This document shows positions 5,521-63,480 of a stretch of DNA of 64,000 nt, piece by piece. Under the pieces are notes generated by a model. That model saw only the letters and a program-made list of their open reading frames with translations, was not told the DNA's origin and made no database searches. The number at the start of each line of letters is the position of its first letter. The stretch's first letter is position 1. A program made the position numbers and the translations under genes. The stretch is from Eledone cirrhosa (taxonomy: Eukaryota), in contig OZ024755.1 in assembly GCA_964016885.1 (NCBI GenBank), positions 19,716,001 to 19,780,000 of the forward strand, written 5' to 3'.

Positions 5521-5795
5521 GGAAAGTTATATTTAAATTGTTGGGTTACAACGAGTAAATATTTATAACTGATATAAAAGCACTCGACAAGTATTTGGAG
5601 TATATTTACGATATTAAATAAATGGAAACTATATTTATAAAACCATATTTATTTCATTATATATATTTCAAGGATATCATATTAACAATATGCTATGCCT
5701 TCCTCAGACAAAATACAATATAAACAGTTTTATAGATAAATAGATTTGACATACCGTACAACATCGACTTGTATTTGAAAAGTTGAATTGAGTTG
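5521..5795 (-). mobile_element. Family H hammerhead element, copy 1 (retains the 3' tail, ends at (TA)n)
   Basis: Homologous to 7883-8070 and 8090-8195; contains the ribozyme at 5650-5715 and the tail stem at 5582-5601. Confidence 0.75.
5650..5715 (-). ncRNA. Minimal type-I hammerhead ribozyme (intact core)
   Basis: Minus strand: TATTTTGT-CTGAGGA-aggcatagcatatt gtt aatatgatatcctt-GAAA-T-ATAT-A-TA-ATGAAATA. Stem I has G-U pairs, stem II is paired, loop III is palindromic, cleavage triplet AUA. Confidence 0.8.
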
Positions 5796-5801
5796 ACTGC
5801 C

Positions 5802-6382
5802 AAGGGAGAGGGGAGAGGGGGAGAAAGAGAGAGGGAGAAGTGGAGAAGGAGAGAGGGAGAGAGGGAGAGAGGGAGAGAGGGAGAGAGGGAGAAAGAGAGA
5901 AGGAGAGAGGGAGAGAGGGAGAGAGGGAGAGAGGGGGAGAGAGGGAGAGAGGGGGAGAGGGGAGAGGGAGAGAGGGATATGGGGAGAAGGAGAGAGGGAG
6001 GAGGAGAGAGGGATATGGGGAGGAGGAGAGAGGGATATGGGGAGAAGGAGAGAGGGAGAAGGAGAGAGGGATAGGGGGAGAGGGAAAGGGATAGGGGGAG
6101 AGGGATAGGGATATGGGGAGAAGGATAGGGGGAGAAGGAGAGAGAGAGAGAGGGAGAGGGAGAGAGATGAAGAGAGAGGGAGAGAGAGGGAGAGAGAGAG
6201 AGAGAGAGAGAGAGAGGGAGAGAGAGAGGGAGAGAGAGGGAGAGAGAGGGAGAGAGAGGGAGAGAGAGGGAGAGAGGAAGAGAGAGGAAGAGAGAGGGAG
6301 AGAGGAAGAGAGAGGAAGAGAGAGGGAGAGATAAGGACAGAGGGAGAGATAAGGACAGAGGGAGAGATTAAGAGAGAGGGGA
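5802..6382. repeat. G/A-rich compound repeat
   Basis: Direct reading; source of the P/S/L-rich ORFs. Confidence 0.95.
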
Positions 6383-6784
6383 TGAGCAATTTGAGCAGTC
6401 TTAGAAGGCACCAATTTGTGGAGCCTTATACTGCGGGTGGTGAAATATATATGAGGATAATTAAAAGGTTTGAATTAAGATGCGATACAATGAGTTTAAT
6501 ACGATAATGTAACCTATAGAAAGAGGCATTGCTATACTATATCTAGCACAAGATGCTACCTCTACATGGTCGTTGGACTTGATGCTACTAAATGTGTCAA
6601 TCTCAAATCGCACTCTACAGTTTTAAATATGACGGTCAATGCAATCATAGATATACAAAACAAGATGGTATATTAACCACCGAAATGCGTATAACCCATA
6701 AGATCTGATCTGAAGCGAAGAGGTAACAATATCAACAGCTGCCATAAGACAAATATCTATAATCCCAAGTAAATCAATTTTGAT

Positions 6785-7012
6785 GAATGTTCGATTACCG
6801 GTGACCCTTTGTGCCATTGAGCAAGATATTTTATTTCACGTTGGTCCATGCCTTGTCCCACATTGTGGTACAATGAATACCATTGAATATTAAGTTAAAG
6901 GCACACGTATATGTGGAATGCTCAGCCAGCCACTTGCACGTTAATTTCACGTGTAGAATGTCCCTTTGGTCGAACTACTGGAACATTTGTCTTCGGAACT
7001 GACGGTAATCCA
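6785..7012 (+). mobile_element. Degenerate SINE of another family (B-box plus CORE-like segment)
   Basis: GTTCGATTACC, TTGAGCAAGATATTTTATTTCACGTTG and CAGCCACTTGCACGTTAATTTCACG resemble a cephalopod SINE as I recall it; single copy here. Confidence 0.5.
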
Positions 7013-7059
7013 AAACCAAAATATTATTGTTGAAAGTTGATATTAAGGAAACGTGCCTA

Positions 7060-7265
7060 TTGTTGTTGTTTAACCCCAGGTCAACTCTGAGAAACATGTC
7101 TAGTCGTTATCACCCCGTGTATTAATTTTATGTCTAGGACTACATTATAGGATAAAGTTTCGATAATTTGGTCCCAGTTCTTTCTTATTTAAGAAGATAA
7201 TGTGCGATTCGAGAGATATTTGGTTGCTATTTCTAGTACGTCCACCCACCATGTAGAGGCTTTCT
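7060..7265 (-). mobile_element. Family I interspersed repeat (GCTAGAAATAGCAGCCAAAT...CTAAACAACAAC), SINE/LINE-tail-like
   Basis: GTTGTTGTTTAACCCCAGGTCA...TTTGGTTGCTATTTCTAG; homologs at 11745, 12018, 12805, 29225 and 36125. Confidence 0.7.
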
Positions 7266-7882
7266 TGTTAACTTCAATATGTTGATTCCATCAAAGATAA
7301 CTTGTGATAATTATTTCTCATAACACGAAGTCTGTGTGTGTCTGTGTGTGTCTGTGTCTGTGTGTGTCTGTGTGTGACGGGTGTTGTGTAAGGTATTAGC
7401 AGCTATGAAATCTTGAGGAGAGAATATGATGTGCGTTATTTATTTCTTGATATAAATAAGGTTTGACTTTTATTACGAGCATTACTTCACACGGGCATGC
7501 GCAGAACATTTTACTTTGAAACAGAGAAAAAAAAAATTTCAGATCTGAGAAGAGATGCCATACATAGCTAAAAGCATCTTCTCATCCAAGGATATAAATA
7601 GAACTTGATAGAAACATAATTGTCAGATCCAAGAGAATTCAGCTGGTTTCTTCTCCCACATTTTCAAAGATCTAACGTGGCTATTGTTTAGTTATACAAG
7701 ACCTTGTGAAAGCATTACATTTCCAGTAAGTTTTAGCGCAACGACAATACTTTTCTTTCTATACTGTATATTTCAAGAAGCACAAAGTATGGCGTCAGGT
7801 TTAGTTGGGTAATATTTCTTTTTAATGCAATTTCTTATTGATGCAAATCTCATGAAGCCTGCACTGTTTGTAAATATATATA

Positions 7883-8070
7883 TACGATATTAAACAAATG
7901 GAAACTATATTTATAAAACCATATTTATTTCATTATACATTTTTCAGGGATACCATATTAGAAATATGGCATGCCTTCTTCAGATAAAATACAATATATA
8001 AGCAGTTTTATAAATAAATTTGACGTACCATAAATATTGTTCAACTTCCATTTAAAAAAGTTGGTTTGGT
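7883..8070 (-). mobile_element. Family H copy 2 (tail-less) with near-intact hammerhead at 7926-7991
   Basis: Minus strand: TATTTTAT-CTGAAGA-aggcatgccatatt tct aatatggtatccct-GAAA-aatgta-TA-ATGAAATA; TA runs on both sides. Confidence 0.75.
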
Positions 8071-61176: not shown

Positions 61177-61178
61177 GA

Positions 61179-61397
61179 CACGAGCGTCCCTGTCAACTCA
61201 GCTCTATAACTATCAGCACACCAGCGTCCCTGTCAACCCAGCTCTATAACTATCAGCACACGAGCGTCCCTGTCAACTCAGCTCTATAACTATCAGCACA
61301 CCAGCGTCCCTGTCAACTCAGCTCTATAACTATCAGCACACGAGCGTCCCTGTCAACTCAGCTCTATAACTATCAGCACACGAGCGTCCCTGTCAAC
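61179..61397. repeat. 40-bp minisatellite, 5.5 copies
   Basis: C(G/C)AGCGTCCCTGTCAACTCAGCTCTATAACTATCAGCACA at 61181, 61221, 61261, 61301, 61341 and 61381. Confidence 0.95.
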
Positions 61398-61744
61398 ATT
61401 AACTTCCAACATCCTGTTATAATTCAAAAGCAAATATCTAAAAACGAGATTGTTAATTCAAATGTTTACGATACCTTTACCATAAGACAAATCGTTGCAA
61501 ACATTGCAATATTAGAGTCGTTAAGACTTTAAAGTGATGTGGGTATAGTGTTGTTTTGTACTTTTCTAGAATGCGGTTTCCTGTGGAACATGATGTTTGT
61601 TGTTAATGTAATTATCTAGAGATAAAATCAAATGTGCCAATTGGTTAATTATTGATATTATTTCATTGGAACTGAGATTTACTGCTCACAGTTTAATGGG
61701 AAAATTCATAGTTGAGCGAGATGAATAAAGCAAAAAAAACTGAC

Positions 61745-62141
61745 AGAGAGGAGATAGGGAAGAGAGAGGAGATAGGGAAGAGAGAGGTAGAGAGAGAGAG
61801 AGCGAGAGACGGAGAGAGAGACGGACGGAGAGAGACGGAGAGAGAGAGACGGAGAGAGAGAGAGAGACGGAGAGAGAGAGACGGAGAGAGAGAGAGACGG
61901 AGAGAGAGAGAGAGAAAGAAAAATGGAGAGAAAGAAAGATGGAGAGAGAGAAAGAAAGATGGAGAGAGAGAAAGAAAGATGGAGAGAGAGAAAGAAAGAT
62001 GGAGAGAGAGAAAGAAAGATGGAGAGAGAGAGAGAAAGAAAGACGGAGATGGAGAGAGAGAAAGAAAGATGGAGAGAGAGAGAAAGAAAGATGGAGAGAG
62101 AGAGAAAGAAAGATGGAGAGAGAGAAAGAAAGACGGAGAGA
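61745..62141. repeat. GA-rich minisatellites (GACGGAGAGA)n and (GAAAGAAAGATGGAGAGAGA)n
   Basis: Direct reading; source of the E/R/K-rich ORFs. Confidence 0.95.
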
Positions 62142-62575
62142 TACAGTGGGAGTTAGAAAGATATGTATATAAATGTTATAAAATTAACATGGTTTATTAA
62201 TTAGATCCCCAACTAAATATCTGATTAGATTGCTTTTTCAGGTTAAGCATGGAGGAAATCCGGTGTTGTTATAGGACAAAGGGCATGCGTCATATATTTT
62301 ATAGGAAAATCAATTACAATATATAGAGAGCCCAAGCAATCCACAATATAGAAGATTATAAAGAGATATGATACTTATTGACCGTTTATAATATATAAGG
62401 ATAGGAAACAGAGCATTGAAATAGTCTAATGTAAATATTTTATAATAGCCTAGTTTGAATGTAGAACATTCTCAACGGAGAGTTCATATGATATATCAAT
62501 ATAAAGGATAAACATTTTGAGTGCTTCTGATTTTAAACTTAATCCACTGATAACACACAAACGCACACATATATG

Positions 62576-62720
62576 TAAAAGGTAAATAGAAGTAACAGCA
62601 CAATCGGTACAGTATATGGAAAGAATATATTAGTTTAACGCTTGAAATAGCAGGAAAAGGGTCTTAACGTTTCGAACGCTAGTGCTTCATCAGCAGAAAG
62701 AATGAAGGAACGGGCAGGGC
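62576..62720 (-). mobile_element. Family E copy 2 with intact-core hammerhead (62662-62697)
   Basis: Minus strand: tctg-CTGATGA-agcac tagc gttc-GAAA-CGT-T-AAGA. Confidence 0.7.
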
Positions 62721-63257
62721 GAAATCAGAGAGAGAGGAAGAGGGGGTGGAGAGAGTGGGAGAGAAGGAGGCAGAGGGAGAGAGAGAGCGAGAGAGCGAGA
62801 GAGAGAGAGAGAGAGCGAGAGCGAGAGCGAGAGCGAGAGCGAGAGAGAGCGAGCGAGCGAGCGAGAGAGAGAGAGAGCGAGAGAGAGAGAGCGAGAGAGC
62901 GAGAGAGAAAGAGAGAGAGCGAGAGAGAGCGAGAGAGAGAGAGCGAGTCAGTTCCACTACATGGTGTGCTAATTTGTTGGGGAACTAACTCAAAACAGAA
63001 CTCGTCCTTGGACTGAGGGTTCTATTCACTACGGATTTTTTACCACTATATATATATAAATACTATGTGGTAAACTATATTTGGTCGAGTGCAAGGTCTT
63101 TCCCCACTTAAAAAACCCTTCAAAGCACATGCATTGCTTGTTCTGGATATGTTATAGGTTTGTGTGGCTGGCCGTGGCCTAAAAGTGCACCAAACTCTGT
63201 AAACTGACAAGCAGCACTCTTAGCAGAGTTTGCAGCCATCTCATATATACATATATA

Positions 63258-63480
63258 GTAATAATAATAAATTTGAAGACTAAAATCCAAAGAGGGCTCG
63301 ATAAGGATAAATATATATCAAATATATAAGAACCGAAGAGCAAATATTTATTAAAATAACAGATTAAAGTTTGAGCAAAGAATCGCTGCTTTCACCCTTA
63401 ACGGGGTCTTCAGAAGATCCCGTTAAGGGTGAAAGCAGCGATTCTTTGCTTAAACTTTAATCTGTTATTTTAATAAATAT
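63258..63480 (-). mobile_element. Family D fold-back element (~68-bp arms, apex at 63412 inside CUGAAGA) plus tail
   Basis: Minus strand: CTGAAGA-ccccgttaagggt-GAAA-gcagcgattc; the palindrome centre is TCTTC-A-GAAGA. Confidence 0.7.

Follow-up and report, generated by a model that had tools for sequence, protein, structure and literature searches.

How do the copies of a mobile element, family after family, come to stop at the same short distance from a conserved stem? This question is raised by a 64,000-nt stretch of the genome of Eledone cirrhosa (contig OZ024755.1, positions 19,716,001 to 19,780,000; hereafter the window), a (TA)n-rich animal genome of 3.0 Gb and 33% G+C. Several repeat families of the window belong to the Penelope-like elements (PLEs), the closest retroelement relatives of telomerase. 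They consist of pseudo long terminal repeats (pLTRs) that often form head-to-head inverted arms, of which one arm carries an additional 3' tail. A preliminary description of the window had claimed that inverted and tail-less copies stop about 5 nt upstream of a stem at the start of the tail, and had read this boundary as a nick that resolves a fold-back intermediate. The origin of the PLE tail and of the inverted repeats is named as an open question by Craig et al. 2021 (PMC8557442). Our analysis confirms the stop points, which are general across families. Judged from the sequences, the two ends of a copy are likely to be two reverse transcriptase (RT) start sites set by hairpins, one per target strand, i.e. 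programmed twin priming.

Penelope-like families and the positions of their ends

Sequence comparison confirms that the window families are Penelope-like retrotransposons, of which they represent the 3' ends; they bear protein motifs of the Hydra clade and sit within (TA)n. The earlier identification as PLEs with pLTRs, often inverted, and a tail is borne out by arms that continue into open reading frames (ORFs) encoding RT and a GIY-YIG endonuclease, in at least two loci each for families B, H, J, D and F and in one locus for C. A single ORF with RT followed by a C-terminal GIY-YIG was found in B (loci L049, L050), J (L083, L091) and H (L072, L078). Pfam gave a GIY-YIG match below cut-off for L083 (E 0.0026) and no match for three other queries. 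The DKG motif is changed to DKT in B and J, and the RWK position reads RWR or SWR in B and RWT in J (RWK or RWR in 26 of 27 homologues). A CxCx5C linker as well as CxxC and CxH around a conserved E and N, with no CCHH, were recognized by eye in the B, H and J translations and in the homologue alignment. Putative hammerhead cores with stem I are located in the pLTRs of C, H and J, and also in K; a search of the window with Rfam returned no hammerhead at gathering score. In family B the first half of the hammerhead core is non-canonical, and B palindromes centre in the stem II loop (L002, L004, L006). Insertion into (TA)n is seen in 121 of 126 B and 81 of 82 H tail ends, which enter TA within 18 nt. 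The tails are about 75-140 nt long. Between its two tails the B unit measures 3542 nt (L049) and thus exceeds the "generally shorter than 3 kb" of the clade, because it has a long 3' untranslated part. One exact 31-mer of a single B subfamily has 23,883 matches in the genome, which means that the process shapes a large genome.

A Helentron or a DNA element resembling miniature inverted-repeat transposable elements was rejected as an identity, since the arms run into RT-GIY-YIG ORFs and the centres differ from copy to copy. The Naiad clade was ruled out by the C-terminal position of the endonuclease. In J and H loci (L091, L095, L072, L076) ORF-bearing pieces stand head to head around a pLTR.

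Every junction that had been listed for H, B, J, K, C1, D and F was found in the window. The gap that separates the tail-less arm from the first stem base is given for the longest and the shortest reading of the arm, because each tail-less arm runs into (TA)n. It amounts to 5/7 nt for H copy 2 (end 7883), 5/8 nt for B (at 63499, 33078, 44218 and 44831), 4/7 nt for J (end 40250, partner of 40591), 5/9 nt for K (end 58173, partner of 58331), 4/6 nt for C1 (end 9261), 1/7 nt for D (35189-35195) and 2/6 nt for F (63480). The ranges of all seven families overlap at 5-6 nt, and a fixed distance between stem and boundary is supported. The original figure of "about 5 nt" is the longest reading, and the junction cannot be fixed within the TA overlap. 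The left arm of C2 (37959), already singled out as an exception, does end 29 nt before the stem.

The same two stop points were found beyond the window, where a tally of end positions had been suggested as a check. Arm-only queries, with the best 30 loci each, gave 150 loci, of which 5 without an anchor were dropped and in which a few insertions appear twice. Among the 145 scored arm ends, 95 lie at the boundary, 47 at the tail end and 3 elsewhere; two fixed positions account for 142 of 145. DNA picked by position (96 stretches totalling 960 kb) contained 111 arms, all from families B, H, J, K and F and none from C or D. The tail end accounts for 47 of these ends and the boundary for 46 (93 together), and 12 of the 18 other ends were divergent family-B copies whose alignment broke 5-10 nt early.

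Chance TA microhomology to the target could in principle set the ends, with the stem being incidental. A TA overlap of 2-6 nt does exist at every boundary, and the D boundary is the best such site. Equally long TA runs are, however, present elsewhere at 2-14 sites in six of the seven families (none in D), and these competing sites are not used: none of the stem-bearing B arms has its first TA run at two competing in-tail sites (109 with a run, 8 without one in view). The hairpin described below is also kept with compensatory changes across unrelated elements and is present at both ends, which this explanation leaves unaccounted for. TA microhomology as the sole cause, named beforehand as the result that would overturn the claim, is not upheld; it is already largely refuted, and we give it next to no credence. 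Some family C tails (L120, L126, L138) end in an A run ahead of the TA repeat.

A bulged hairpin and its second copy

The stem had been described as ACTC..GAGT. A conserved stem is indeed present; its form is that of a bulged hairpin instead, and in F it reads GCTC..GAGC. The hairpin is built of a 4-bp lower stem (RYTC/GARY), a 3'-side bulge of mostly 2 nt with T first, an upper stem of free sequence and a loop of 3-63 nt. The K copy of the window has ATTC in the stem, the remaining K copies have ACTC. A search for palindromes with one tail in 309 sequences from the same genome yielded 218 pairs in 61 clusters, of which 40 named groups were retained after removal of simple-repeat and internal-end clusters. 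Hairpin 1 starts 2-11 nt behind the boundary in 18 of these 40 clusters, versus a shuffle mean of 0.71 and a maximum of 4 (200 shuffles); the 18 include c35, the automated calls for c57 and c35 took the wrong partner, and the C, D and F examples failed the strict test.

Where a copy continues into the ORF, the tail end is closely followed by a second hairpin. It was found by script in B (L050, with variants in L049 and L270), J (L091) and c4 (L173), and read by eye in an imperfect form in run-on copies of D, c9 and c16. The two hairpins lie 60-140 nt apart, ahead of the ORF. Hairpin 2 sits 3' of the tail end, hence outside the inserted copy, and therefore points to action on RNA. The earlier suggestion that the stem positions an initiation site is supported, the second hairpin lying equally far behind the tail end. 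Rfam returned 0 matches at gathering score in the window and one chance match (E 0.11) in five hairpin-bearing loci.

Raw reads reproduce this geometry at both hairpins. On J (L091), loose ends continued by TA fall at 1653/1656 and 1744/1746 with stems at 1661 and 1751, i.e. at distances of 4 nt (hairpin 1) and 4-6 nt (hairpin 2). On B (L049) they fall at 3462 and 3540 with stems at 3468 and 3546, i.e. 5 nt before each hairpin on the reference used. These are the best-supported loose ends of longer lists (185 and 466 further rows) rather than a genome histogram, and a few loci dominate the restriction site-associated DNA (RAD-seq) reads.

The hairpins are also present in Hydra-type elements of marine metagenomes. 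The homologue alignment led to 77 metagenome loci, 33 of them with the ORF start and at least 100 nt upstream. A hairpin with an upper stem of at least 3 pairs occurs in 19 of 33 upstream windows versus 1 of 193 ORF windows (controls: 3 of 33 reverse strands, 60 of 1650 shuffles), and its positions concentrate in two regions, around -93 to -134 and -40 to -73 relative to the start codon. At 46 sites anchored blind to the upper stem, 105 of 138 possible first three upper pairs form in the register of a 2-nt bulge versus 40-47 in other registers; the first upper pair is C-G in 30, T-A in 13 and G-C in 1. In 38 chosen short-loop hairpins, whose lower stem is partly fixed by the selection, 97% of cells pair and 39 cells are altered on both sides, a value that none of 500 shuffles reached. 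Where a metagenome locus holds a second copy of the region, nine of ten readable ends (contig-edge and weak copies excluded) are found 2-5 nt ahead of a hairpin, which is the first one in six cases and the second in three; two of the hairpins were read by eye, and the exception is L323. The metagenome hairpin 2 at L335:430-460 equals hairpin 1 of family J (L091, window 40591-40620) at 27 of 31 bases, loop included, at a protein identity of only 36%.

Two probable start sites and the alternatives

Under programmed twin priming an RT-endonuclease protein, probably a dimer, would bind both hairpins of one RNA, and its GIY-YIG domains would nick both (TA)n strands. Each 3'-TA end would base-pair to the U/A-rich spacer that immediately precedes its hairpin, and extension would proceed toward the RNA 5' end. 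A start before hairpin 2 would give the tailed arm, a start before hairpin 1 the tail-less arm; the tail would be the RNA between the hairpins and so contain hairpin 1. The two cDNA 3' ends would be joined by microhomology or end joining. Copying of the pLTR by both RTs, with displacement of the first cDNA by the RT that started downstream, would result in a palindrome with a one-sided tail. An early stop of one RT would leave a stub or a solo copy. Whether the duplicated covarying hairpin docks two subunits of an RT-endonuclease dimer on one RNA, with both (TA)n strands primed at programmed sites, appears to us about evenly balanced.

The arms and their junctions were examined in 55 inverted pairs, with identical coordinate pairs counted once. 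The tail-less arm extends at least 10 nt further 5' in 30 pairs, the tailed arm in 13, and 12 are level; the loci were chosen by long arm queries, and 30:13 is therefore not a rate. As in twin priming, the inverted piece begins at a site that is internal to the RNA and shares microhomology with the target; target site duplications are masked by the (TA)n. An internal deletion between the pieces is found in only 10 of the 55 pairs, in which the tailed piece ends within the tail and no inverted repeat results; most pieces overlap. At the inner junctions (n=55), 32 pairs overlap by 1-9 nt and 20 have inserted bases. In the C1 insertion of the window the tail-less arm is longer than its tailed partner, shorter tail-end stubs were seen by eye in L144, L149, L118 and L286, and solo tail-less copies with TA on both ends make up 10 of 30 K loci.

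These observations bear directly on the fold-back scenario, in which a tail-primed cDNA folds and copies itself before the GIY-YIG endonuclease, directed by the stem in its DNA form, makes a cut about 5 nt ahead of that stem. A fold-back copy cannot pass the 5' end of its template strand, and the longer tail-less arms (30 of 55) thus speak against it, as do the 10 pairs without an inverted repeat, the solo tail-less copies between TA runs and the same geometry at hairpin 2 outside the inserted copy. Each such observation demands an additional deletion step. The scenario does predict pairs of one tailed and one tail-less arm that match in sequence, and rare variants are common to both arms at 18 sites. 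Published work also lends it some weight: self-priming was proposed for inverted pLTRs (PMC3846280), the Drosophila virilis endonuclease requires the tail for recognition (as cited in PMC11167929), and resolution by the endonuclease was suggested for the Hydra clade (PMC8557442). On balance the nick that resolves a fold-back, as originally proposed for the boundary, is not supported by our data, and we regard the scenario as improbable.

Pairing of the arms discriminates further. A hand count over the first 100 genome rows, of which 49 are tailed and 51 tail-less, gave 24 head-to-head pairs; all of them are mixed, and two diagnostic bases match between the arms in 22. The family-B pairs in the fetched loci comprise 76 mixed, 4 tailed-tailed and 0 tail-less-tail-less pairs, with 9 unclassified. 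Dual priming from two RNAs, one per target strand and each started before one of its own hairpins, would with free site choice make half of the pairs same-class, while 0 of 24 and 4 of 80 were seen; moreover, with three variants common, both arms still carry the same one in 22 of 24 pairs. Dual priming would allow long palindromes without strand displacement and would accommodate the 4 tailed-tailed pairs, the differing diagnostic bases in 2 of 24 pairs, and L145, in which a J-like tail in inverted orientation adjoins a K tail-less arm. We consider dual priming unlikely. In L145 (minus strand, upstream of 1500) the join runs via about 7 A/T bases and may be a cross-family insertion or two nested events.

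A third possibility is a free DNA intermediate, a double-stranded copy that the endonuclease trims before either hairpin and whose trimmed ends are then joined to (TA)n. The hairpin pairing is nearly strand-neutral, and the Poseidon protein cuts its own junction DNA in vitro (PMC11167929), both of which would fit. This possibility gives no reason for the one-of-each pairing, the inner junctions resemble joined truncated cDNAs, and in vitro a related clade showed target-primed internal initiation (PMC11167929). It is therefore very unlikely in our view.

Besides the sampling behind the 30:13 split, a number of points weigh against programmed twin priming. Long palindromes need one RNA copied twice, which is an assumption, and later deletions at palindrome centres could also give short arms and stubs. 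The 18 sites at which rare variants are common to both arms all belong to the older families J, H and C, with 0 in K and D. Rare differences confined to one arm number 86 overall, and the J count in this comparison is inflated by gaps; the shared variants are compatible with fold-back copying, with a common source and with later conversion. About ten palindrome-plus-tail clusters (tails 35-65 nt) have no hairpin 1 behind the boundary, c4 has hairpin 2 and no clear hairpin 1, and the distance departs from the rule in C2, in clusters c29 (7-11 nt), c41 (11-15 nt) and c55, and in L323. In the loci examined, K, c8, c9 and c16 have no link to an ORF end, and the linkage of C is one locus. The sense strand folds better in only 23 of 46 metagenome hairpins, the upper stem has 8 G-U versus 3 A-C, and 5 outer pairs are A-C; this test of pairing and folding gave no strand choice, nor a choice between RNA and DNA.

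Two further ideas about the arms were discarded. An apparent T in tail-less versus A in tailed B arms was due to ascertainment, as the first query bore a rare A (present in only 24 tail-less matches, versus 23,883 matches in all); among the sequencing reads, 8198 of 8381 have T at this position. The idea that palindrome centres generally arise by fold-back at hammerhead stem II fits B and some K; the inner ends of K, J, D and C cluster further 5'. These inner (5') ends cluster at about -170 to -190 from the stem in K, -171 to -180 in J, -161 to -180 in D and -221 to -240 in C. The K cluster follows a TATA-like box and an initiator-like TCACT (L156:1378-1412) and may correspond to the transcript start.

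The window copies and known systems

Family H is represented in the window by three minus-strand copies: a tailed one (5521..5758; hairpin 1 from 5601, tail to about 5521) and two tail-less ones, copy 2 (7883..8032, end at 7883, putative hammerhead core at 7983) and copy 3 (8090..8210, end about 8090, within (TA)n). The family B insertions are located at 8758..8892 (plus strand; inverted tail-less arm and tailed arm, hairpin 1 from 8823), 32885..33078 (minus; hairpin 1 from 32956, tail-less arm end 33078), 44045..44218 (minus; hairpin 1 from 44116), 44637..44831 (minus; hairpin 1 from 44708) and 63499..63692 (plus; hairpin 1 at 63621-63644), accompanied by a degenerate copy (10781..10920, minus) and a tail-less fragment (14026..14091, minus). 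C1 (8921..9261) comprises, on the minus strand, a tail with only about 30 nt of pLTR and hairpin 1 at 9009-8970, joined to the longer tail-less arm on the plus strand (9042-9261, putative hammerhead core 9161). C2 (37959..38605, plus) consists of the tail-less arm with the exceptional end, a spacer and a tailed arm with hairpin 1 at 38520-38559; its putative hammerhead cores lie at 38038 (minus) and 38419 (plus). The family D copy (34846..35195, minus) has a long tailed arm, a 36-nt tail-less arm and a long-looped hairpin 1 at 34989-34926. Palindromes with a tail are represented by J (40250..40680, plus; hairpin 1 40596-40620, putative hammerhead cores 40350 (minus) and 40485 (plus)), K (58173..58423, plus; hairpin 1 58337-58362, centre inside the putative hammerhead stem II) and F (63255..63480, minus; hairpin 1 of the GCTC..GAGC type at 63341-63296, tail-less end 63480, left boundary approximate). 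More tail-less pLTR pieces with hammerhead-like cores were noted at 53134-53330 and 32620-32790, one of the cluster c4 type and one C-related (core 32781).

Other repeats of the window include a very abundant, partly tandem 190-bp repeat resembling a short interspersed element (946-1155, 9781-10566 with four tandem copies, 15094-16110, 27837-28339, 53523-54179 and others). There are also two palindromes assigned to none of the families: one of 78 bp, perfect and with (TA)n at its centre (35210-35287), and one of 170 bp, imperfect (33210-33381). The stretches 17659-18127, 29298-30038, 61178-61397 and 58480-60021 are occupied by tandem arrays, whose units measure about 43, 25 and 80 bp, and by a degenerate TA array of 1.5 kb.

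A short motif with fixed spacing at both ends offers a rule for annotating element ends and a direct mutational test. If programmed twin priming is true, twin priming would be the normal insertion route, unlike the accident it is in L1, and one RNA motif would explain why these elements have a tail, an inverted pLTR and so many short hairpin copies. Should the dimer model prove right, the protein would be a natural example of an RT writing into a break from either side, at positions programmed by RNA.

The closest published relatives are the elements of the Hydra clade (PMC8557442), for which tails of 30-40 bp and an inverted truncated copy are described. Like them, the families reported here have a single ORF with RT and C-terminal GIY-YIG, DKT, the CxCx5C linker, CxxC/CxH around E and N, a predicted pLTR hammerhead, (TA)n insertion, an inverted truncated copy and a one-sided tail. 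They differ from the published account in their tails of about 75-140 nt, in the B unit of 3.5 kb and in the duplicated bulged hairpin to which both ends are tied and of which a search of that paper's sections and supplement found no mention. In PAc, a Poseidon element of Anolis (Frangieh et al. 2024, PMC11167929), both strands are cleaved and extended in vitro, two internal RNA starts bracket the tail, targets are AT-rich and a dimer is predicted. The AT-rich targets are shared with the families here, and so, on the proposed reading, would be the two RT start sites that bracket the tail. PAc belongs to another clade, however, and its starts lie within one AC-rich stem loop inside the ORF; in the portions consulted, no conserved or duplicated motif is described and inverted copies are left unexplained. 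In the present families the proposed starts lie in front of two hairpins, both upstream of the ORF, and would involve a short TA pairing with the target.

Twin or dual priming of L1 (PMC2837659) resembles our case in that the second strand primes internally and yields an inverted 5' piece, and in the 3'-end stubs and short inner-junction overlaps. L1 has no fixed internal site, and its pieces are separated by an internal deletion, whereas here the site is fixed by a hairpin, the route would be the main one of insertion and the pieces mostly overlap, resulting in palindromes. The Penelope families of Adineta vaga (PMC3846280) have head-to-head inverted pLTRs, an optional tail and a pLTR motif of the TATA plus initiator-like kind, as seen here. 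Their inverted pLTRs were explained by self-priming, possibly on an antisense template; for the families of this study the arm asymmetry argues against self-priming. A word search of the literature and supplements, which covered neither figures nor subscription papers, found no bulged hairpin and no twin priming for PLEs, and the parts of a 2026 retrozyme preprint consulted hold nothing further on ends. Element class, tail and inverted copy are thus already known (PMC8557442, PMC3846280); to these our analysis adds the end-distance rule in reads and metagenomes, as well as the arm-asymmetry and pairing counts against fold-back.

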